From contig CAWDRP010000002.1 of assembly GCA_963804755.1 (NCBI GenBank), forward strand, positions 118,179-182,178: DNA of 64,000 bases. Reading direction: 5' to 3'. A program made the translations under genes and the position numbers. Positions 6,853 through 64,000 of this stretch are shown here, piece after piece; within the stretch, counting starts at the first letter, position 1; the number at the start of each line of letters is the position of its first letter. Under the pieces are notes generated by a model, which saw only the letters and a list, made by a program, of their open reading frames with translations, searched no databases and had not been told where the DNA came from. This DNA comes from an uncultured Acidobacteriota bacterium (GTDB taxonomy: Bacteria > Acidobacteriota > Terriglobia > UBA7540).

Positions 6853-9261
6853 TTACGGCGCCGCGAACGGGTCGGGCGGCGGCTTCAGCCGATATTCCTT
6901 CGGCGGCTCGGCGCCCAGTAGATAGCGCACGAAGTAGTCCCACCGTCTTCGCACCATGTACGGCTCATTGCCGAACCCATGCCGGCGGTTGGGCAGCAGG
7001 AGCAGATCGAAATCCTTATTCGCCTTAATCAACTCGTTCACCACCAGCAGCGTGTTATATGGCGGCACGTTGTCGTCGAGCGTGCCGTGGGCCAGCAGCA
7101 GGTGGCCCTTCAGGTTTTTGGCGATATTCTCGTTGGCTTGGTCGTCGTAGTTCGTAGCGCCGTCCGGTGAGCGCGTCAGCAGTCCCTGGTAGCGCTCGCC
7201 CCAATCGTCTTCGTACTCGCGATTGTCATGGTTACCGGCCTCCGAAATTCCCACCTTGAAGAAATCCGGGTAACGAAACATCGCGTCCGCCGCGGCGTAA
7301 CCTCCGCCAGAATGGCCATAAATGCCGGCGCGTGCGAGGTCGATCCACGGATAGCGCTGGGCCAGTTGAGTCATTCCGGCCACCTGGTCAGGCAGTGTGT
7401 TGTCACCCATGTTCCCGTAATAGGCGTCGTGGAATTTCTTCGAGCGCAGCGGATTACCCATGCCTTCGATCTCGACCACCACGAAACCGAGTTCAGCCAG
7501 AGCCTGTGCGTCACTGCGCGCGGACGCGAACGACCAGTTACCGACACTCCCTTCCTGCGGCCCGGGATAAATTTGGTTGATGATGGGATACTTCTTCTGC
7601 GGGTTAAGTCGAGTGGGTGCGAACATCAGGCCGTAGAGGTCGGTCGATCCGTCGCGCGCCTTAACCATGATCGGCTGGGGCGGTTTCCACCCGGTCGCCA
7701 GCAATTGGGAAATGTCGGCCTTTTCGATGGTCGTCAGGAGCTTGCCGTCGGACTGTCGTAGCACGGTGACGGGCGGAACGTCGGGCCGGGAGTAGCTGTC
7801 CACGAAAAAGCGCGCCGAGCGCGAGAAGCTGACCTCATGGTCGGCATCTTCCGGCGTCAACAGCGCGAGTCCCTGCCCATCGAGTCCCGCGCGATACAGA
7901 TGAGTGAAGTAGGGATTGCACCCGGGTTCCCGCCCGTCGGCCAGAAAATAGACCGTGCGCGCCTGCTCATCCACGCGCAATAACCGGGTGACCACCCAGT
8001 TGCCGGCGGTGATGCGGTCCTTCAGCGTTCCCGAACTCAGGTCATAAAGGTAGAGGTGGCCCCAATTGTCGCGCTCGGAGTACCAGATGTACTCGTTCGA
8101 GCCGAACAGGATGCGCCAGTTCACGCCGCCCTGTCCAGATTCGTACTGCGTCGCGACGCGCTCTTCCATGACGTCCCGAACGCGGCCGTTCGCGGCGTCG
8201 GCAATCCGCAGTGTCTCCTGTTTGTGGTCGCGCGAGGTGGAGAGGAAAGCCAGCCGTGTTGAATCCGGACTCCACTGAACGTCCGTCCAATTACCCGCCT
8301 CCTCAAATGGACCATCCGGGCAGGCGACGTCGTCGCACAGTGAGGACCGGTGAGGATCGGGCGCCATCCGCAGGCGAATCACCTTCGGCGTTTCCACCTC
8401 GATGATGACGCGCTGAATGGTGGCTATTACGTCATCGCCCGGCAGCGGGTACTTCCACGCTTGCAGCGCCGGATGGCCCACCTTGGTCTCAACCAGGTAC
8501 ATCTCGCCCACCTTCCGTTGGTCCTGCTGAAAAGTGGCGATCTTCTTCGAGTCCGGCGACCACATCAGGATCGGCCGGTCACTTTTCTCCCATCCCGCGT
8601 TGTCCAAGGCGTACGAGAAGTCCTTGATGCCGTCGGTGGTGAGCTGGGTCTCTTTGCCGCTGGCCACATCGCGCACCCACAGGTTGTACTCGCGTATAAA
8701 AGCCACTTTCTTCTTGTCCGGCGAAGACACCTCGTTGCCCACGCCGCCCCGCCGCCCTTCCCTGCCGGCTGCTCCTTTCGCGCTGCCCTCCTCAGTACAG
8801 ACCCGGCCCTGGCGGTCGCACTGGAACCGGCGGGAGCCGACGTGAAGCGAAACAGATTGGCCATCGGCCGAGAATTCGATTTCGCGGAACGGAAGCTTGT
8901 TCGGCTCGTAAGTCTTGCCTGCCGCCCGCGAAAGAGCCGCTGACAGCCTGGCGTGATCGAAAGCCGGCTCCTTGGCGAGCTTTATGGGGTCAAAGACTAC
9001 GAAGTGCACGCCATCGGCACTGACATCGCGGTACCACAAACGCTCGTCGCTGGTCCACGCGGGCCGCACCGCGTGATACACCAGCGGCTCCGTGTTGTAC
9101 CCCATGAATCTCTCGGCGCGCGCGTAATCGGCAGCGGTTACGACACCAGGCGCCACCGCGTCCTGCGCGCTGACAGACAATCCGATCGGAAAGACGAGCA
9201 ACATCAGCAGTAGTACCAGACAGTGACAATTGCTTTTGAACGGTTGCAAGCGCATAAGCAT
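6853..9261 (-). CDS. S9 family peptidase (DPP IV-type N-terminal beta-propeller plus prolyl-oligopeptidase alpha/beta hydrolase), secreted
   Basis: 802-aa ORF with a signal peptide. GHSGGGY nucleophile elbow (GxSxG) and DPP-IV-like propeller repeats. Confidence 0.8.
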   Translation of the reverse strand: MLMRLQPFKSNCHCLVLLLMLLVFPIGLSVSAQDAVAPGVVTAADYARAERFMGYNTEPLVYHAVRPAWTSDERLWYRDVSADGVHFVVFDPIKLAKEPAFDHARLSAALSRAAGKTYEPNKLPFREIEFSADGQSVSLHVGSRRFQCDRQGRVCTEEGSAKGAAGREGRRGGVGNEVSSPDKKKVAFIREYNLWVRDVASGKETQLTTDGIKDFSYALDNAGWEKSDRPILMWSPDSKKIATFQQDQRKVGEMYLVETKVGHPALQAWKYPLPGDDVIATIQRVIIEVETPKVIRLRMAPDPHRSSLCDDVACPDGPFEEAGNWTDVQWSPDSTRLAFLSTSRDHKQETLRIADAANGRVRDVMEERVATQYESGQGGVNWRILFGSNEYIWYSERDNWGHLYLYDLSSGTLKDRITAGNWVVTRLLRVDEQARTVYFLADGREPGCNPYFTHLYRAGLDGQGLALLTPEDADHEVSFSRSARFFVDSYSRPDVPPVTVLRQSDGKLLTTIEKADISQLLATGWKPPQPIMVKARDGSTDLYGLMFAPTRLNPQKKYPIINQIYPGPQEGSVGNWSFASARSDAQALAELGFVVVEIEGMGNPLRSKKFHDAYYGNMGDNTLPDQVAGMTQLAQRYPWIDLARAGIYGHSGGGYAAADAMFRYPDFFKVGISEAGNHDNREYEDDWGERYQGLLTRSPDGATNYDDQANENIAKNLKGHLLLAHGTLDDNVPPYNTLLVVNELIKANKDFDLLLLPNRRHGFGNEPYMVRRRWDYFVRYLLGAEPPKEYRLKPPPDPFAAP

Positions 9262-55899: not shown

Positions 55900-56547
55900 T
55901 CAGCTTGTGATGGATGACGCGATAGGCTGGAGGACTTTCGCCGTGGTGACGGTGCGAACGCCGGCCGCCTGCAATTCCTCCAGCGTCTTGCGCCCACCCT
56001 CTTCGGTGATGGGTTGGATGGCGTCGACCACGAGTTCCACATCGAAACTTCGTTGACGCAACGCCAGCGCCAGGGCGCGCACGCAGTACTCCGTCGCCAC
56101 GCCAAACACCACCGCCCGGCGTCGGCCCAGCGCCTGCAGGATAGCGTCAAAGTTGGGGTTGCCCTCCATAGAATAGATGGGCTTTTCCACGATGAACTGA
56201 CCCACCCAGCGCGCGGGAGGTTGGAAGGCGCCGCGCTGGGCAGGAATAACCTCCGGGGCGGGAAAATGCGTTTCCGGAATGCGCTTCTGCCCGGGAGTGC
56301 CCACGACGCAATGGGGCGGCCAGGTTTTGAACTCGGGATCGTCAGGCTGGTGTGCGTCGGCCGTGGAGATCACCGGGACATCGTTCTCGCGCGCCCACCG
56401 CATTAAGCGTTGGAGATTGGCCACGATCTGTTCCGCGCCCGGAACGTAAAGCCGCCCGTCCGGCCGCATGAAATCCACCTGCGTATCGACATCGAAAAAA
56501 ACCAGCGGCGCACTGGGGACGGATCTGTGTCCGGCATCGGTATTCAT
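55900..56547 (-). CDS. pncA: Isochorismatase-family nicotinamidase
   Basis: FFDVDTQVDF (Asp), VATEYCVRALAL (Cys nucleophile region). Lies 17 nt downstream of pncB. Confidence 0.75.
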   Translation of the reverse strand: MNTDAGHRSVPSAPLVFFDVDTQVDFMRPDGRLYVPGAEQIVANLQRLMRWARENDVPVISTADAHQPDDPEFKTWPPHCVVGTPGQKRIPETHFPAPEVIPAQRGAFQPPARWVGQFIVEKPIYSMEGNPNFDAILQALGRRRAVVFGVATEYCVRALALALRQRSFDVELVVDAIQPITEEGGRKTLEELQAAGVRTVTTAKVLQPIASSITS

Positions 56548-56564
56548 CGTGGAACCACCACCAT

Positions 56565-57920
56565 TCAGTGAGATGACTTCACCGCGCCAAAGTGGTGTAT
56601 GTGAATGTCTTCCAGCAACTGCTCGAGTTTGGCGCTTTTTTCGACGCGATACGCGGGCGCCCCGCGCAATGCGCGGTACGCTTCCGGCAAGCGGGAAAGA
56701 TTGGCGAGGGTGCGCTCGCGAATTTCTTTCACCGGGGGCGCCGGTCCCAGGCGACTTCCGGCGCGCATGACCGGTTCGAGCAGGGGCGATGCTTGGGGAT
56801 AATCTTCGTCGGCGCAAGCAAGCAGGTCATGATGGTATTGCCCGTCACGGGAAAAACGGAAAACCTGTTTGCGGCCGGGCCAGTAAACCTTCTCCTCGCT
56901 GAATTTGGTCTTGGGCTCCACCACGCCGCCGCTTTCCGTCTCCACCAGTTTATAAACCACACTCAAGGCCGGCACGTCGCGCGAGGTCACCATTTCCGTA
57001 CCCACGCCGAAGGAATCAATCGGTGCGCCATTCGCCACCAACGCCTCGATCTTGTATTCGTTCAAATCGCCGCTGACCACGATCTTGGTGTCGCCCCGGC
57101 CGTGGCGGTCAAGAATCTGGCGAACGTGCCGCGTTTTTTCCAGCAGATCGCCACTGTCAAGCCGCACGCCCGGCACTTTGGTCTCCAGCGTAGCCGCGAT
57201 CTGTGCGCCCACCAGGGGATCGTAAGTGTCAATCAGCAGGATGGCCGAATCGGGAAAGGTCTCAAGCAGTGCCTCAAAGCTGCGCCTTTCGCTGGGAAAT
57301 ACCTGTGTCCAGGAATGCGCCGCCGTGCCCGCCAGGGGCAGATCGTAAAGCGCGCCCGCCAGCACGTTGGAGGTGGCCAAGCAACCGCCCACGCACGCCG
57401 CTCGGGCAGCTCGCACTCCCGCTTCCGGCCCGTGCGCCCGGCGCGTTCCGAATTCCAGAACGCTGCGCCCGCCGGCCGCCCGCACCACACGCGCCGCCTT
57501 CGATGCCACCAGGGTTTCGTAATGGATCACCGACAGCAGATACGTTTCCGCGATCTGGGCCTCCGCCACCGGGGCCGTCACCTGCATCAGGGGCTCTTCC
57601 GCAAAGACCACCGTGCCTTCTTGCACCGCGTGAACGTCGCCGTTGAAACGAAACTCCCGCAGGTAGTCAAAGAATTCCGGCGAAACGGTGTGAAAGGCCG
57701 GCTGTTCCAGCAGGAAGCGCACATCATCGTCACTGAACCGCAGGTTTTCCAGGTAGGCAAGCGCCGAATCAAGGCCCGCCGCCACCAGGTACGAGCGCTG
57801 TGACGGCAAATGTCGCACAAAGAGCTCGAATGTAGCGCGGCAGTCAATCCGATGCTCAAAATACGCCGCCGCCATCGTCAATTCGTAAAGGTCTACCAGT
57901 AACGCTCGATCAGTGTCCAT
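56565..57920 (-). CDS. pncB: Nicotinate phosphoribosyltransferase
   Basis: LVDLYELTMAAAYF... NAPRTase family throughout. Start placed at MDTDRALL. Confidence 0.85.
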   Translation of the reverse strand: MDTDRALLVDLYELTMAAAYFEHRIDCRATFELFVRHLPSQRSYLVAAGLDSALAYLENLRFSDDDVRFLLEQPAFHTVSPEFFDYLREFRFNGDVHAVQEGTVVFAEEPLMQVTAPVAEAQIAETYLLSVIHYETLVASKAARVVRAAGGRSVLEFGTRRAHGPEAGVRAARAACVGGCLATSNVLAGALYDLPLAGTAAHSWTQVFPSERRSFEALLETFPDSAILLIDTYDPLVGAQIAATLETKVPGVRLDSGDLLEKTRHVRQILDRHGRGDTKIVVSGDLNEYKIEALVANGAPIDSFGVGTEMVTSRDVPALSVVYKLVETESGGVVEPKTKFSEEKVYWPGRKQVFRFSRDGQYHHDLLACADEDYPQASPLLEPVMRAGSRLGPAPPVKEIRERTLANLSRLPEAYRALRGAPAYRVEKSAKLEQLLEDIHIHHFGAVKSSH

Positions 57921-58062
57921 TGCAGGGGTCCTTCGCCCAAAACCCAAGGGCAGTCCAGTATGTCGCCACGAACCAAAAGCAGTCAAGCATGGGGACGGCC
58001 CCCCGCCCCGCTCCTCCTTCCAGTAAAGGGATTCGAAAAGCAAAGTGAGTCGAATCGCACTC

Positions 58063-58926
58063 TCACACGCTCAACACCGGGCAAGGAGCGTCCCGAACCA
58101 TGGCGTAGACCAGATCTCGCAAGCGTCCCTGGGCGCCCGGTTGCGAACTTCTACCCATGATGAGCACGTCCGCGTGCAGTCTGCACGCCGCCTGGGCTAG
58201 CGCGTCCTTGACAGGGCCAACAACGATTAGCACGCGAGCATGGGAGCCCAAAGTCCTTTGCAGTTCTTCAATGCGTTTCCGGGCCGCTCGCTTTTCCACC
58301 GATTCCACACGCTCTTCGAGGTCCAATTGAACAGGCAGCCCGCGTTCAGCAGCGGGAATGGCATGAATGATGGTGAGGTTGGCGCGAACAGTTTCCGCAA
58401 GCGCTGAGGCACAGCGAAGCACACGCCCCGAATCCGCGCCCAATCCAATCGTACAGACCCATTCCCGATGCTCAAGCCCCCTGGGCGATATAGTTTCCGC
58501 ATGTTGCGTGGTCAGGACTAAACTGTCGGCATCGTTCAAAACCTTTGCCGTGGTGGATCCAAGGAGCATCCTGCGGAATACTCCGGCATGGGTAGGCATG
58601 ACGATCAACTCGAAACCGCGCTCCCGCGCGATCGTGGAGATTTGAGCGGCTGCTTCTCCCAGCGCCAGTAATCTTGGTGTCTTGCGCACTGGGAATTCCG
58701 AGGAAAGGTACGATTTAAGTCTGTCGCAGGCGCATTTTTTGCGGTCCTCTTCGATGTCCGGCACGGGGCGCGCCAGCGGCTCGAATCCCGCAGCAGAAGG
58801 CTCGAGAACGTTCAAAAGGGTTACTTTGGCAGCCAGCATCGTTGCCGCGCGATTGACGAAGGGCCCCATGGCATCGCACGAGGCCGAGAAATCCACCGGG
58901 AACAGAATCTTCTGAATCTTCAGCAT
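58063..58926 (-). CDS. Universal stress protein, tandem UspA domains
   Basis: Two Usp domains (ILFPVDFS... and ...VLSV ends). Confidence 0.75.
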   Translation of the reverse strand: MLKIQKILFPVDFSASCDAMGPFVNRAATMLAAKVTLLNVLEPSAAGFEPLARPVPDIEEDRKKCACDRLKSYLSSEFPVRKTPRLLALGEAAAQISTIARERGFELIVMPTHAGVFRRMLLGSTTAKVLNDADSLVLTTQHAETISPRGLEHREWVCTIGLGADSGRVLRCASALAETVRANLTIIHAIPAAERGLPVQLDLEERVESVEKRAARKRIEELQRTLGSHARVLIVVGPVKDALAQAACRLHADVLIMGRSSQPGAQGRLRDLVYAMVRDAPCPVLSV

Positions 58927-58988
58927 AGACCGATTCCTAATTGGGAGGCTGGTCCGGGTCGCCTGCACCGCTCCAAGCGCTCCAAGCG

Positions 58989-59279
58989 TCAGCGCATTGC
59001 GGCACCAGCCTCCGAAAAGGGTTCAATCATTTGCTCATCGACGTAGCACCATCCCCAGTCCTCGCCGGATTCGAGTGATCGCATGATAGGGTGATGCGTC
59101 TTGTGAAAGTGCTTGGTGGCGTGCCGGTTCTTTGAAGAGTCGCAGCAGCCGACGTGGCCGCAGGTCTCGCAGATACGAAGATGAACCCACAAGTCGCCCA
59201 GTTTTAAACACTCCTCGCACCCATCGGTGTTGGGCGATGGGTGACGTATTTGGTCAACATGTGAACAGATCTGTGGCAT
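58989..59279 (-). CDS. UBP-type zinc-finger (zf-UBP) domain protein
   Basis: C-x2-C ... WVHLRICETCGHVGCCDSSKNRHATKHFHKTHHPI ... WGWCYVD matches the zf-UBP Cys/His scaffold. Confidence 0.7.
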   Translation of the reverse strand: MPQICSHVDQIRHPSPNTDGCEECLKLGDLWVHLRICETCGHVGCCDSSKNRHATKHFHKTHHPIMRSLESGEDWGWCYVDEQMIEPFSEAGAAMR

Positions 59280-59291
59280 TTCATTCCTCCA

Positions 59292-60776
59292 TTAAGCAGT
59301 GGCGGCCGGGGTAGTGGGCTGGGTTATGGGCAAGTAAATCTGGAATCGAGTATCTCCGGGGTGCGAATCAACGCGGATTTCGCCATGGTGGTTTCTAATG
59401 ATGCGGCACGCCGTGTCCAGCCCCAGCCCCGTTCCCTCTCCTATCGCCTTGGTGGTGAAGAAAGGCTCAAAAATGTGCGGCAGAACTTCGGGAGGTATCC
59501 CTGGCCCGTTGTCTCCAACCTCCACAAGCACGCGATCAAGTTCCTGCGCGGTTCGCACCCTCAGCTCGCCCTTGCCATTCATGGCTTCGATGGCGTTAGT
59601 GATCAAGTTGGTCCAAATCTGGTTCAACTCACCGCCGTACGCGCAGATCTTGGGCAGATTTTTGGCATAATCGCGGACAACATGGATTCCGCCTTTCAAG
59701 CGGTGGTGAAGCATCGTCAGAGTGTTCTCGAGCCCCTGATGCAGATCGATTTCCTGCATCGATGCCTGGTCCATATAGGAGTATTCCTTGATGGCGCGAA
59801 CCAGGTCCGAGATGCGCCGGGTGCTGATCTCAATCTCGCTGATCAGTTTCGAGATGGTCAAAATCGAGGTGATGCGGGTGAGGGCATCGCACAGGACGTC
59901 GTCGCCAACTTGGGTGGCCAAAGCTTCCAATTTCGGTACTTCGACGCCCGCATCAGCAAGTACTGGCGCGACCTCCCAAGCATCCGGAAGATGGCGTCCC
60001 TCCAGCCAGGTGGTGATACGCTCTTCGCGATCACTTTGAACGAGGGGATCGGCGGGAACGGTGGGAGCTTCCAACGCCTCCCCCTCGAACCGGATAATCA
60101 GTTCGCGTTGTTCGCCGGAAAGTGCATGGCGGGCCAGCCGAATGCCGGCATCGCGCACCGTCACGAGCGCCTCACGAAGGCTGGCAGTTGCCCGTTGCGC
60201 CGCAGCGGCCGGGTTGTTCAGCTCATGCGCCAACCCTGCGGAAAGCTTGCCAAGCGCCGTCAACTTCTCGCGTTGGGTGTCAATCCGGGTGGTCTCACGG
60301 ATGCGGTCTGCCATTATCGCCACCAAACGCGGACCGAGCGGAGGGATGCGCTGCATCATCTCCGGGAAAAACCTTTTGTGAAGGCGCACGATGCGAGTAG
60401 GCATTACAGCGCGCGCCGTGCCGCTGAAGTGCGTCAGTCGGGAGTATGGGAGCAGGCCCGTAACTTGGCCGGCGAAGGCGACATAAATAGACCCCTCCGC
60501 TTCGCTCCCTCGCTGATAGCGTATCTCGCCTTCCAGAACCACGTTCAGATACTCCACCGGGTCGCCCGGACGGACAAGAATGGCACCCGCCTGGTAACGG
60601 ACTTCCTCAAACCTTTCGGCGAGCCAGGCGAGCTGCTCCGGCGTGAGGTCTGAGAAGACTTCGATCTTGCGCAGGTCCTCAATCAAACCGCTCCGCGTTA
60701 CGCTATTAACGTTCTCGGCCAAGTTACACCTCACTGAGGTATTGATGGGTGAACTGTACGGCAATTGAGCCTTCAC
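59292..60776 (-). CDS. Cytoplasmic sensor histidine kinase with an N-terminal cyclic-nucleotide-binding (CAP effector-like) domain
   Basis: cNMP-binding beta-barrel (VFSDLTPEQLAWLAERFEEVRYQAGAILVRPGDPVEYLNVVLEGEI), HisKA (LAHELNNP) and HATPase (GTGLGLDTACRIIRNHHGEIRV). The start may lie ~20 codons inside, because the ORF overlaps the upstream gene by 53 nt. Confidence 0.75.
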   Translation of the reverse strand: MKAQLPYSSPINTSVRCNLAENVNSVTRSGLIEDLRKIEVFSDLTPEQLAWLAERFEEVRYQAGAILVRPGDPVEYLNVVLEGEIRYQRGSEAEGSIYVAFAGQVTGLLPYSRLTHFSGTARAVMPTRIVRLHKRFFPEMMQRIPPLGPRLVAIMADRIRETTRIDTQREKLTALGKLSAGLAHELNNPAAAAQRATASLREALVTVRDAGIRLARHALSGEQRELIIRFEGEALEAPTVPADPLVQSDREERITTWLEGRHLPDAWEVAPVLADAGVEVPKLEALATQVGDDVLCDALTRITSILTISKLISEIEISTRRISDLVRAIKEYSYMDQASMQEIDLHQGLENTLTMLHHRLKGGIHVVRDYAKNLPKICAYGGELNQIWTNLITNAIEAMNGKGELRVRTAQELDRVLVEVGDNGPGIPPEVLPHIFEPFFTTKAIGEGTGLGLDTACRIIRNHHGEIRVDSHPGDTRFQIYLPITQPTTPAATA

Positions 60777-62394
60777 CCACGCCCGATGCTACTCGTTTCA
60801 CCGAACCGTGGCGGACGTCGCCCGCGGCAAAGATGCCCGGCACACTGGTTTCCGGCCAGTAGGGATCCCGGCTCAGGGGCCAACTTGCGGGCCATTTGCC
60901 GTCGCGCATCAGGTCCGATCCAGTCAGAATAAAACCCCGCTCATCACGCTCCACCACGCCCGCTAGCCATTCCGTAAGAGGTTCGGCGCCAATAAATATC
61001 GCCAGCATGTTGGTGGGCGCCTTGAACGTTTCGCCGCTCGTGTCGCAGCAAATGGAAATGGCTTCGAGGTGGTCCTGGCCGTGGGCTTCCACCACCCGGC
61101 AGTGCGTTTCAACCTGGATATTCGGCGTTTTCTTGATCTGGTCGATCAGGTACTGCGACATCGACGCGGAGAGCGACTCGCCACGAACCAGCATCACGAC
61201 TCGCCGGGCGTACTTGGAAAAATACATCGCCGCCTGTCCGGCCGAGTTCGCACCACCCACAATGTAAACGTCCTCCCCGCGGCACGACATGGCCTCGGTC
61301 ATGGCTGAGCCGTAGTAAACACCGGCTCCTTGCAGACGCTCGGCGCCAGGCACGTTAAGCTTGCGGTAGGAGACACCCGTGGCAATCAGGAGGACTTTGC
61401 AACCGATGTTCACTCCCCCTTGTAATGTGACCGTGCGGGAAGGGCCTTCCACCGTCACACGGGTGACTTGTTGGGGAGATAGAATCTCGACGCCGAAACG
61501 CCGGGCCTGGGCGACTGCGCGACGTGCCAAGTCGCCGCCGCTCAATCCGGAAGGAAACCCCAGATAATTCTCAATGCGGGAGCTCATTCCCGCCTGCCCG
61601 CCGGGAGCGTCCATTTCAATCAGCACCGTGCGCAGTCCCTCGGATGCTCCGTATACCGCCGCCGCCAATCCGGCGGGCCCGCCGCCGGCGATCACCATAT
61701 CGTAGAACGCGATCTCGGGACTAACGCGCAGGCCGAGTTTTTCCGCTATTTGGGTGATGGTAGGAGTCGTCAAGGAGGAACCATCGGGAAAAAGCACCAT
61801 CGGTAGGGACGAAACTTCCGCGCCTGCCGCCTCGATTAAACTATGGTGCTCGGAACTCTGCCCTGCCGTCTCCACGTCGACCCATTGATAAGGTGTTTGG
61901 TTGCGCGCCAGAAAATCCCGGATGACGTAAGATTGAGGAGACCAGCGGGTACCGAGAACACGTACGCCCTCAAAAGGCGGCCGGAACGATGCGGTCCAGT
62001 CTCCCAACAGGTCATCGAGCACCGGGTAGAGGTTCTCTTCCGGTGGATCCCACGGCTTCAGCAGATAGTGGTGAATTCGTGCCTCATTAATGGCGCGAAT
62101 CGCCGCGTCGGTATCCGCATAAGCGGTCAAGAGAACGCGCTTGGCGTCCGGGAAAAGATCCATCGCTTGTTCGAGGAATTCCACGCCGGTCAACTGCGGC
62201 ATCCGCTGATCGGCCAGAAGCAAAGCTACGGAAACATTCCGACGCTTGAGCCCGCGCAGCGATTCCAGTGCAACCGCGCCAGAGTCCGCGCGCAAAACTC
62301 GAAACCGGTCTGCATACCGGCGCCGAAGGTCCCGCTCGATAGCCCGCAGTACCTCGGGGTCATCATCAACTGTTAATAAGACAGGTTTCTGCAT
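60724..62394 (-). CDS. Response-regulator receiver fused to a thioredoxin-reductase-like FAD/NAD(P) flavoprotein that lacks the CxxC redox centre
   Basis: REC (LLTVDDDPEVL...LLLADQRMP...KPWD), a middle thioredoxin-like segment, then a TrxB-like domain (VIAGGGPAGLAAAVYGAS...VYIVGGANSAGQAAMYF...GIFAAGDV). MTEAMSC sits where the CATC of TrxB would be. Confidence 0.75.
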   Translation of the reverse strand: MQKPVLLTVDDDPEVLRAIERDLRRRYADRFRVLRADSGAVALESLRGLKRRNVSVALLLADQRMPQLTGVEFLEQAMDLFPDAKRVLLTAYADTDAAIRAINEARIHHYLLKPWDPPEENLYPVLDDLLGDWTASFRPPFEGVRVLGTRWSPQSYVIRDFLARNQTPYQWVDVETAGQSSEHHSLIEAAGAEVSSLPMVLFPDGSSLTTPTITQIAEKLGLRVSPEIAFYDMVIAGGGPAGLAAAVYGASEGLRTVLIEMDAPGGQAGMSSRIENYLGFPSGLSGGDLARRAVAQARRFGVEILSPQQVTRVTVEGPSRTVTLQGGVNIGCKVLLIATGVSYRKLNVPGAERLQGAGVYYGSAMTEAMSCRGEDVYIVGGANSAGQAAMYFSKYARRVVMLVRGESLSASMSQYLIDQIKKTPNIQVETHCRVVEAHGQDHLEAISICCDTSGETFKAPTNMLAIFIGAEPLTEWLAGVVERDERGFILTGSDLMRDGKWPASWPLSRDPYWPETSVPGIFAAGDVRHGSVKRVASGVGEGSIAVQFTHQYLSEV

Positions 62395-62403
62395 AATGAC
62401 ATA

Positions 62404-63669
62404 TCACCAAAGCTTGACGTGCGGTTCCACTGACATTCCGGGCCTGAGCGGATGCGCGCGATCCTGGCCTTTATCGAACACGATCTTTACCGGAATTCGC
62501 TGCACGACCTTCACGTAATTTCCCGTGGCGTTTTCGGGTGGTAGTAAGCTGAAACGGGCTCCGCTGGCGCCCGCAATGTTGAGAACATGCCCATCGTAGG
62601 TGCGATCATAGGTATCGACGGAAATCCTGACGGGCTGGCCGGGCCGCATATACTTCAGTTGGGTTTCCTTGAAATCGGCGGTCACCCAGATATTCTGGCT
62701 GTCCAAAGGGACGATCGTCATGAGTTGCTGGCCCGGCGATACGTTCTGGCCCGGCTGGACCGAACGTTGCCCCACGACCCCGCTGACGGGCGCCACGATG
62801 GTGGTGTACTGCAAGTTCAATTCCGCTTGGTGCAAGACGGCCAATGCCCGCTGCGTCTCGGCGGCCGCTGCGCGCGCCCGGGAGTTTTGGACCGAAATCT
62901 GCTGCGGGCGAGTCTCCGCATATTGCAACTGTGCTTCAGCTTCCGCCAGCCGGGCGCGGGCCTGAGCGACGGACTGTTCCGCTCTGGCGGCATCGGCCTG
63001 CGAGCCCTGGACAGCGGCGGCGGTGGCCTTCTCGCTATCGACGGCTTGAGTATAACGTTGCTGAGGAATCTCATCCTTAGCCGCCAGTGGCTTGAACCTG
63101 TTCACATCGTCCTGCGCCTTTAAATCGTTCGCTTCGGCCTGTAGCACCGCTGCCTGCGCGGCGTCGAATTGGCGTTGCGCGGCCTCGAGGCCGGCAGTGG
63201 CATTTTGGATGTCCGCTCGAGCGCTGGAAAGCTGGCTGGAAGTGTTTACGGAAGTGAGCGGGACGGTTGTAGCACTAGCTGCCGCACTTGCCTGATCGTT
63301 CGCGAACGTGGCAGTGGCATTGGCCACCGCGACACGGAAGTCTTCCGGATCAAGTTGCACCAACACGGTGCCGGCTTCGACGTATTGGTTATCGTCGACG
63401 GTCACGCGCGTTACATACCCCGAGACACGGGAGCTGACGGGGTAGATGTAACCGTCGATCTCCGCGTCGTCGGTTGACTCCCAGGCGGCGAAGTGCCGAT
63501 ACAGTAGAACCGATGCGACGCCAATCACGAGCACAACCGCCAGGATAAGTAATACCTTTCGTAACTTCCGCGGGCGTGCAGGCGGTTTTCCCGGGCCCAC
63601 TCCGGTGCCCGATAACTTTACGTCACCGGTCCTCTGTGTGTCTCGAACCTGTGTCACTGCGTCTGCCAT
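62404..63669 (-). CDS. HlyD/EmrA-type periplasmic adaptor (membrane fusion protein)
   Basis: N-terminal TM, coiled coils, YVTRVTVDDNQYVEAGTVLVQLDPEDF hairpin and lipoyl-like regions. Confidence 0.8.
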   Translation of the reverse strand: MADAVTQVRDTQRTGDVKLSGTGVGPGKPPARPRKLRKVLLILAVVLVIGVASVLLYRHFAAWESTDDAEIDGYIYPVSSRVSGYVTRVTVDDNQYVEAGTVLVQLDPEDFRVAVANATATFANDQASAAASATTVPLTSVNTSSQLSSARADIQNATAGLEAAQRQFDAAQAAVLQAEANDLKAQDDVNRFKPLAAKDEIPQQRYTQAVDSEKATAAAVQGSQADAARAEQSVAQARARLAEAEAQLQYAETRPQQISVQNSRARAAAAETQRALAVLHQAELNLQYTTIVAPVSGVVGQRSVQPGQNVSPGQQLMTIVPLDSQNIWVTADFKETQLKYMRPGQPVRISVDTYDRTYDGHVLNIAGASGARFSLLPPENATGNYVKVVQRIPVKIVFDKGQDRAHPLRPGMSVEPHVKLW

Positions 63670-63671
63670 AT

Positions 63672-64000
63672 TTACCTCACTCCCAAATATTGAAGCGCGG
63701 ATTGCTCGGCGACCCCGAGCGCCTCCGCGAGTGAGAGTTTTGCCTCGTTAAACGCGTAGAGGCTTGAGATGTAAGATTGATTGGCGGTGGCTACGGATTC
63801 CTGCGCTTGAACCACTTCGAGATTGTCCGCCACACCCGCTCTAAAGCGGTCCCGGGCTTGGGCCAACGTCTGGTCGGCAAGATCGATGTTGCTTTTGCTC
63901 ACCGCCACCAGATCGGTTGAGGACTTGAGGTTAAAGAAGGCGGTGCGCACTTGATCGTCGATCTTCCCTTCAAGATCCGCGAGTTCCGCCTTGCGTTGTT
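63672..64000 (-). CDS. TolC-family outer membrane efflux protein, C-terminal part (gene continues beyond the window end)
   Basis: ...DLADQTLAQARDRFRAGVADNLEVVQAQESVATANQSYISSLYAFNEAKLSLAEALG is a TolC/OprM C-terminal repeat. Confidence 0.6.
   Translation of the reverse strand, partial: QRKAELADLEGKIDDQVRTAFFNLKSSTDLVAVSKSNIDLADQTLAQARDRFRAGVADNLEVVQAQESVATANQSYISSLYAFNEAKLSLAEALGVAEQSALQYLGVR

Follow-up and report, generated by a model that had tools for sequence, protein, structure and literature searches.

A kinase-paired response regulator with a conserved, CxxC-less thioredoxin reductase-like flavin module and its relatives behind other sensor domains

Response regulators with an enzymatic output are few, and to our knowledge none with a redox enzyme as its output has ever been characterized. 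The known kinds, such as CheB, PleD/WspR, RpfG and the RsbU-type proteins, follow one logic, in which the receiver, once phosphorylated, controls the catalytic domain fused to it. Here, we analyzed a histidine kinase and a response regulator encoded on the minus strand of a 64,000-nt stretch of contig CAWDRP010000002.1, from an uncultured Acidobacteriota bacterium (this whole stretch is called the window below). The regulator would apply the same logic to flavin/NAD(P)H redox chemistry instead of hydrolysis or a cyclase or phosphatase output. Regulators in which a receiver (REC) precedes a pyridine-nucleotide-disulfide oxidoreductase domain, and which are paired with a kinase as in the window, constitute the 'TrxB' class of Galperin and of P2CS, and such REC-TrxB proteins are already present in published censuses (PMC5847659, PMC9739842, PMC9953108). 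Thus, Streptomyces coelicolor SCO7298 was placed in this class together with the kinase SCO7297 (PMC9739842), a cyanobacterial census contains a further entry (PMC9953108), and SCO7298, under the name 'trxB3', was found to be induced by polysulfide (PMC9952706); SCO7298 may be an orthologue of the window regulator. The window pair is a member of this catalogued but uncharacterized kind, and its architecture is not new. The initial annotation of the locus held that the role of CxxC-less receiver-TrxR fusions was still to be settled, and, census listings apart, no functional study of REC-TrxB regulators was found in the full-text literature searched.

The output half of the window regulator is a flavoprotein module that has kept the motifs for binding FAD and NAD(P)H and has lost its redox cysteines, a state that is found throughout the family, and the same module recurs behind several other sensor domains. 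The reading that we favor, if only somewhat beyond an even chance, is that of a conserved flavoenzyme in which electron flow from NAD(P)H to an acceptor other than a disulfide is gated by a signal, here under kinase/receiver control. The signalling unit consists of two genes, and roughly one locus in four or five has a third. As far as could be checked, the family-wide absence of Cys, the degenerate cyclic-nucleotide cassette of the kinase, the equivalence of one- and two-component forms and the linkage to a zf-UBP gene, all described below, are not found in the literature searched.

The list of open reading frames (ORFs) and Pfam gave the two genes and their domains as the initial annotation had described them (Table 1). 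The receiver of the regulator was recognized by Pfam (Response_reg, 51.5 bits versus a cutoff of 30.2), and is most like the RpfG/NosR-type and HupR-type receivers. Its residues D10, D11, D62, T90 and K113 were kept in 75 to 76 of 76 sequences in an alignment of the window protein with 75 orthologues taken from genomic loci. With every catalytic residue present, this receiver is predicted to be competent. No DNA-binding domain was detected by Pfam in the 556 residues, in agreement with the proposal of a regulator with another kind of output. Instead, Pyr_redox_2 matched residues 231 to 542 (117.9 bits, Pfam), and the nearest NCBIfam model for the C-terminal half was that of thioredoxin-disulfide reductase (TIGR01292), with a score of 208.6 versus an equivalog cutoff of 343.45. 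The AhpF model (TIGR03140) scored 152.7 versus a cutoff of 502.9. Thioredoxin reductases (TrxRs) of the PDB matched the regulator at an E value of 1e-44, and Foldseek, run with the whole chain, placed AhpF first and many TrxRs after it.

A thioredoxin-like domain had also been proposed for the middle of the protein, and this proposal was borne out. In the AlphaFold2 (AF2) model the segment adopts the beta-alpha-beta-alpha-beta-beta-alpha topology of glutaredoxins (Grx) and thioredoxins, with a predicted local distance difference test (pLDDT) score of ∼80, and it gave a weak match to the mycoredoxin model TIGR02200 (29.7 versus a cutoff of 89.5; E value, 6e-7). The position of CPYC (C-P-x-C) is occupied by S-P-Q-S, and the cis-proline, Pro198, is invariant. 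Searched alone against Pfam, the middle domain gave no Grx match, the best hit being DUF3088 with an E value of 0.037, which is not meaningful. The overall pLDDT values were 73.5 for the regulator and 69.0 for the kinase; these models are moderate, with low TM-scores. The layout of the regulator is AhpF-like with both dithiol centers gone. The family is named 'thioredoxin reductase (NADPH)' by IMG and 'FAD-dependent oxidoreductase' by NCBI; on this evidence the former name is wrong and the protein is mis-annotated.

Compared with the known flavoproteins, the regulator resembles the low-Mr TrxB enzymes (4ZN0, 7AAW and 1TDE) in its two-Rossmann fold, in the FAD motifs GxGxxG and GD and the NAD(P)H motif GxGxxA, at ∼30% identity. 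It differs from them in having G..TE in place of CxxC and VRG in place of HRR, in scoring below the equivalog cutoff, and in the addition of the N-terminal receiver, the Grx-like domain and an insertion near residues 495 to 512. With AhpF (1HYU) and the NTRC-type fusions it shares an N-terminal thioredoxin-fold domain followed by a TrxR-like flavoprotein, whereas it lacks both dithiol centers and contains one Grx-like fold where AhpF has two thioredoxin folds. The closest precedent for how the module may work comes from the TrxR-type ferredoxin/flavodoxin-NAD(P)+ reductases (YumC/FNR2; 3LZW, 3AB1 and 2ZBW), which have a CxxC-less TrxR fold like that of the regulator and pass electrons from NAD(P)H to a protein acceptor that is not a thiol. 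However, these reductases are far more distant from the regulator (E values of 1e-12 to 1e-15) and lack sensor or Grx-like domains; for its part, their C-terminal FAD-stacking subdomain was not identified in the regulator, whose AF2 model is of low confidence around the flavin site.

Table 1. Features of the kinase-regulator locus and the adjacent zf-UBP gene in the window
Feature	Positions	Strand	Evidence
Response regulator, 556 aa: REC, Cys-free Grx-like domain, CxxC-less TrxR-fold module	60724..62394	minus	ORF, Pfam, NCBIfam
Receiver (REC), residues 7-118	62041..62376	minus	Pfam PF00072
Phospho-acceptor Asp62 codon	62209-62211	minus	
Glutaredoxin-like adaptor, residues 144-220	61735..61965	minus	AF2 topology, TIGR02200 match below cutoff, conservation
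TrxR-fold FAD/NAD(P)H module, residues 229-556	60727..61710	minus	Pyr_redox_2, TIGR01292 below cutoff, PDB TrxRs, Foldseek
Motif G358-V-Y-Y-G-S-A-M-T-E-A368, at the position of the TrxR redox-active C-x-x-C-D	61291..61323	minus	Alignment to 4zn0, 7jyp, 7aaw
Soluble histidine kinase, longest ORF, 494 aa	59292..60776	minus	ORF, Pfam
CAP/cNMP_binding-type sensor, residues 59-143 of the 494-aa ORF	60348..60602	minus	PF00027, AF2 beta-barrel
All-helical insertion of ∼100 aa, residues 205-305	59862..60164	minus	Partial HisKA match, AF2 helices, conserved residues within
HATPase_c, residues 384-485	59322..59627	minus	PF02518, 91.1 bits
zf-UBP zinc-finger protein, 96 aa, 12 nt downstream of the kinase	58989..59279	minus	PF02148

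In the residue-level alignment with solved TrxRs (4zn0, 7jyp and 7aaw), the two cysteines of C-x-x-C fall opposite G362 and T366 of GVYYGSAMTEAMSC, and the nearby Cys371 of the regulator falls opposite a Phe. The CxxC motif was found in none of the 76 aligned sequences, nor in any of 150 distant relatives, which were the best representatives of clusters at 50% identity and reached down to 38% identity. The replacement is itself conserved, with the consensus G-x-G-V-Y-Y-G-A-x-x-T-E-A in the 76-sequence alignment, and its G..TE is also kept by the 150 representatives. Within it, G362 and E367 are invariant and T366 is nearly so, both in the relatives with a receiver and in those with a CAP domain (see below). 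No invariant Cys was found anywhere in the regulator among the 76 sequences, C332 and C371 being present in 59 each, and the orthologue of Deinococcus aetherius has a single Cys in its 555 residues. The cofactor sites, on the other hand, were retained: the FAD motifs GGGPAG (GxGxxG), ATG and AAGDVRHG (GD) are invariant in the family, as are the NAD(P)H motif GGANSAGQAA (GGxNSAGQAA in the family) and R404. The third Arg of the TrxR NADPH site is a Ser in the regulator, despite the conservation of GGANSAGQAA and R404. The insertion near residues 495 to 512 is specific to the family and contains the invariant residues W505, R509 and P511.

Two outcomes would have told against the proposal of a TrxB-type FAD/NAD(P)H domain without CxxC, namely, the lack of FAD/NAD(P) motifs and the presence of a canonical CxxC in homologues; the motifs were present and no such homologue was found, so that the proposal survived on both counts. 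Judged from the alignments, the loss of CxxC appears to be an old, fixed trait of the family, with a conserved replacement motif, rather than decay, and the conserved G..TE at the former CxxC site argues for an active site that was re-purposed and not one that decayed. On the same basis, the flavin module presumably cannot use dithiol chemistry of its own, and, since all the catalytic cysteines have been lost, the flavoprotein would have some redox job other than that of a TrxR.

A scan of one genome per species gave at least 594 relatives of the regulator, the best 80 of which are 57 to 81% identical to it and provided the genomic loci compared here. The hosts of these 80 belong to Acidobacteriota, Cyanobacteria, Chloroflexota, Actinomycetota, Verrucomicrobiota and Gemmatimonadota and include one Nitrososphaeraceae archaeon; Deinococcota are also among the host phyla, of which there are about eight in all. 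Identities of 57 to 81% across phyla indicate strong purifying selection. In cultured Nostoc, Gloeothece PCC 7822, Deinococcus aetherius, Caballeronia, Streptomyces, Tsukamurella and Nocardia, the gene is borne on plasmids or chromids.

A kinase homologue, with both sensor and catalytic domains, was found directly downstream of the regulator and on the same strand in 55 of the 80 genomic loci (56 when a frameshifted copy is included) and within 6 kb in 9 further loci, while 5 loci were too short to tell. An independent metagenome sample comprised ∼35 loci of regulators of the same REC type, 28 with room to show a kinase, and in all 28 the kinase adjoined the regulator, downstream in 27 and upstream in 1. 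Pairing with a kinase is obligate for the regulator, in concordance with the conserved pairing expected from the initial annotation, and because the adjacency is conserved across phyla, it supports the two proteins as a cognate two-component system. The frameshifted copy belongs to the locus with the closest regulator among the matches listed (L001, 7619-9069; 81% identity), where the kinase match is in two pieces that meet at 8347; a frameshift or an assembly error is the probable cause. A contig of a Nitrososphaeraceae metagenome-assembled genome (L055, 5997-7802) carries a 57%-identical regulator with a kinase downstream, which points to a horizontal acquisition of the pair by archaea, or else to a binning error. 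In nine loci (L006, L009, L015, L029, L036, L041, L042, L047 and L065), two tandem CAP-domain kinase paralogues lie near a single regulator.

The kinase was described as soluble, and its maximum 19-residue hydropathy (1.37, versus 3.06 for the membrane-anchored HlyD neighbour) is in agreement with this, the low value and the lack of a hydrophobic segment indicating a soluble protein. Its H-box, LAHELNNP, contains His184 and is conserved among the kinase homologues, and the catalytic region gave Foldseek matches to ZraS, CckA and HK853. The HisKA model scored 18.5 versus a cutoff of 26.9 and covered residues 175 to 203 only. An unusual, conserved helical insertion of ∼100 aa separates the helix that carries His184 from the second DHp helix; the DHp hairpin is thereby split, and Pfam matches half of the domain because of this interruption.

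A cyclic-nucleotide (cNMP)-binding domain had been assigned to the N terminus, and as regards the fold this stands: cNMP_binding scored 37.1 bits versus a cutoff of 27.5 (Pfam), and the segment forms a beta-barrel in the AF2 model. The sensing of cyclic nucleotides is another matter. In the phosphate-binding cassette of canonical domains, G-E-x-x-L-x(4)-R-[ST]-A, the Glu and the Arg make the contacts to the ribose 2'-OH and the cyclic phosphate (E72/R82 in CRP, E200/R209 in PKA RI-alpha), and CAP-fold domains without them, such as CooA, FNR, CprK and NtcA, bind other ligands. The window kinase reads G107-L-L-P-Y-S-R-L-T-H-F117-S-G-T-A, with Leu108 at the position of the Glu and Phe117 at that of the Arg. 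Of ∼50 aligned kinase homologues, just two (L070 and L072) have the Arg, and both show the canonical cassette GEMxLL..(A/P)R(T/S)AS. Sensing of cyclic AMP (cAMP) or cyclic GMP (cGMP) by the window kinase is thus unsupported, as both contact residues are replaced, and it is improbable that the sensor is a receptor for cyclic nucleotides.

The 53-nt overlap between the two genes is doubtful as well; it exists for the longest ORF alone and is most likely an artefact of choosing it. Homologous kinases start at positions that correspond to residue 19 or 31, distant ones align from about residue 31, and gene callers give 463 to 477 aa for the kinases of close relatives. The equivalent of residue 31 lies a median of ∼26 nt past the regulator stop in the 55 loci. 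In the window, TTG 60722 is preceded by GAGG, lies 1 nt after the regulator stop and gives a 476-aa product; TTG 60686 is preceded by GGAG and gives a 464-aa product starting IEDLRKIEVFSDL, which resembles the N terminus of the CAP-fused relatives. One of these two codons is the likely start.

The Grx-like domain plus the CxxC-less TrxR-like module recur, at 40 to 50% identity, in other architectures. A very large family, of thousands of sequences, has an N-terminal CAP domain fused in place of the receiver. It is named 'cyclic nucleotide-binding domain-containing thioredoxin-disulfide reductase' by PGAP and is found, e.g., in Paraburkholderia, in Rhizobium and on Rhodococcus plasmids. The module also exists without a sensor domain (P0197, and a Rhodococcus copy), and many distant relatives carry degenerate pseudo-receivers. 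The CAP domain of the fused family aligned with the sensor domain of the kinase with an hhalign probability of 96.8%, and it too lacks the Arg of the cassette, reading GEVPLLLGSPAIAS. A kinase was adjacent to the CAP-fused forms in none of the 46 loci of this type that were compared, many of them on short contigs. Compared with these reductases, the window pair has the same module, often preceded by a zf-UBP gene in the fused form, and differs in that the sensor is fused there and acts through a kinase and a receiver here. One sensory logic would thus exist in a one-component and a two-component version, which argues for the flavin module as the effector, and such a variety of sensor fusions is what one would expect for an output domain under regulation. 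Rarer arrangements were also seen: a CAP domain at the C terminus of a REC-type protein (P0125), a fusion with EF-hand calcium-binding domains (P0268), and fusions with SnoaL-like plus receiver domains (P0136 and P0137).

The CAP-fused family (that of P0154; e.g., L081, 8001-9701) has three invariant or near-invariant cysteines, C116, C157 and C490, the first in the region of the CAP C-helix and the second at the second position of the former Grx CxxC. The REC-type family has no equivalents of these residues, and the CAP-fused family may be a thiol-regulated variant.

The third gene of the unit encodes the 96-aa zf-UBP protein (PF02148, 53.8 bits versus a cutoff of 22.7). The pattern CxxC...CxxCGHxGCC...H is common to the window, Rhizobium and Rhodococcus copies. 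This gene was adjacent in 17 of the 80 genomic loci and in 9 of the ∼35 metagenomic ones; its usual place in such REC-type loci, the window included, is behind the kinase. A copy was also found upstream of a CAP-type gene in a metagenome locus (L082, 7670-7945) and on a Rhizobium leguminosarum plasmid (L165, 4001-4306), and upstream of the sensor-less 420-aa form in Rhodococcus qingshengii (L163, 4663-5031). The linkage thus extends to each of the three main forms that the module takes (REC, CAP and sensor-less). In the plasmid collection the host spectra of module and zf-UBP were very similar, and the two lay within 1 kb of each other in 24 of 26 cross-listed records. Among the 46 CAP-type loci, nearly all from metagenomes and many on short contigs, zf-UBP adjoined the gene in one (L082), and the linkage is clade-dependent. 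Highly conserved zf-UBP mini-proteins without an assigned function were reported in Acidobacteria, Actinobacteria and Cyanobacteria by a 2008 survey (PMC2602986). All-against-all clustering of ORFs from the 80 REC-type and 46 CAP-type loci revealed no conserved neighbours beyond the kinase and zf-UBP, and the remaining large clusters were antisense shadow ORFs.

In the mechanism that we propose, the soluble kinase would detect a small ligand, or a state, by means of a CAP-family beta-barrel without cyclic-nucleotide contacts, autophosphorylate at His184 and pass the phosphoryl group on to Asp62 in the regulator. The output would not be DNA binding, the receiver being followed by the Grx-like adaptor and by the TrxR-fold flavin module, which is predicted to bind FAD and NAD(P)H and has no redox cysteines. 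Phosphorylation of the receiver would, by way of the adaptor, gate the passage of hydride and electrons from NAD(P)H to FAD and on to a non-disulfide acceptor, probably by altering the packing of receiver and adaptor on the flavin module, or the dimerization of the latter. The Cys/His-rich zf-UBP protein would be the best genomic candidate for a partner of this module. That the module is catalytic, in which direction it is controlled, and of what nature the acceptor and the signal are, we infer from sequence; the observations on which the proposal builds are the domain anatomy, the conservation of motifs, the family-wide absence of CxxC, the pairing with a kinase, the modular swapping of sensors and the linkage to zf-UBP.

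Several points weigh against this mechanism. The 'HRR' motif for the NADPH phosphate of TrxRs is V-R-G in the regulator, which leaves the coenzyme preference uncertain; the FAD-contacting loops of the AF2 model have pLDDT values below 50, so that the active site and the docking of domains are not pictured; zf-UBP is adjacent in about 20 to 25% of the REC-type loci; and there is no obvious substrate gene among the conserved neighbours. This last point also speaks for a non-catalytic signalling protein that senses redox state or NAD(P)H, which is the main alternative and which we consider clearly less probable than a gated enzyme. In such a protein the flavin module would be a second input, reading NAD(P)H/NAD(P)+ or oxygen, and the output would consist of a protein contact, e.g., with the zf-UBP protein, or of a phosphate sink back to the kinase. 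The loss of redox cysteines from both the Grx-like and the TrxR-like domains agrees with it, as do the degenerate pseudo-receivers on many distant relatives and a high conservation of the whole surface, which fits multiple protein contacts. However, the module occupies the output position behind REC, CAP, EF-hand and SnoaL plus REC domains and also occurs alone, which is atypical of a sensor, and the FAD and NAD(P)H sites and the conserved motif at the former active site have all been kept.

Other explanations concern the signal and the identity of the enzyme. A relay from cAMP or cGMP to redox chemistry would be in keeping with the above-cutoff cNMP_binding match, with the canonical cassettes of two kinase homologues and with the alignment of the kinase sensor to the module-fused CAP domains; we regard it as unlikely, given that Leu108 and Phe117 replace the Glu and the Arg and that the Arg is absent from nearly all homologues and from the fused family. 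The name given by IMG, the E values of the PDB TrxRs and the first place of AhpF in Foldseek would point to a genuine NADPH-thioredoxin reductase or AhpF-like peroxiredoxin reductase, yet without CxxC or any invariant Cys, and with TIGR01292 and AhpF scores below their cutoffs, this is barely conceivable, canonical function of either kind being refuted at the sequence level by the conservation of the CxxC-less state. Loss of the catalytic motif, taken alone, could also mean that this copy is a degenerate paralogue or pseudo-enzyme decaying in this genome. We give that explanation next to no credence, as the proteins are 57 to 81% identical with a conserved replacement motif across phyla, and a genome-specific decay was rejected on finding the same substitutions in every relative examined across phyla. 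A broader extension of the gated-enzyme reading would take the module for a distinct and widespread class of signal-gated flavin oxidoreductase with zf-UBP as its dedicated partner and with control by a ligand, other than a cyclic nucleotide, of a CAP-fold sensor. There, zf-UBP could be the electron acceptor, in a rubredoxin-reductase-like manner, or a trans-acting carrier of the lost thiols, and control would be direct in the one-component forms or exerted via kinase and receiver, as at the window locus. As a whole, this combination is a long shot.

The family is large, with the at least 594 genomic matches being accompanied by thousands of metagenomic clusters, and unusually conserved, and it is present in tractable hosts, such as Nostoc, Gloeothece PCC 7822, Deinococcus, Streptomyces, Rhizobium and Rhodococcus. 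Should an activity and an acceptor be found, the system would represent a new bacterial route for turning a signal directly into electron flow. We know of no function for bacterial zf-UBP proteins, and the reading of zf-UBP as a partner of the module, if true, would provide the first one.

As for the wider neighbourhood, the flanking genes were as listed in the initial annotation: an OEP/TolC-like fragment, an HlyD adaptor, zf-UBP, tandem Usp, NAPRTase and isochorismatase genes. A functional link to efflux, Usp or NAD salvage was rejected, since a tblastn search of the 80 genomic loci with the proteins of the window's neighbours found Usp, NAPRTase, isochorismatase and HlyD in none of them. 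In the window itself, eight co-directional genes (TolC-like, HlyD, regulator, kinase, zf-UBP, Usp, NAPRTase and isochorismatase) occupy positions 55900-63998 of the minus strand. Gaps between the first seven measure 2 to 20 nt, and the first terminator-like hairpin on this strand lies at 56516-56502, after NAPRTase. In this genome the whole string may be transcribed as a single long unit, although its outer genes are not conserved in other loci. On the Rhizobium leguminosarum plasmid, a kinase, a DNA-binding regulator and a single-domain receiver (L165, 412-3976) precede the zf-UBP/CAP-type pair, with a Dps gene nearby. This Dps gene and the tandem Usp of the window hint at a stress-related context.

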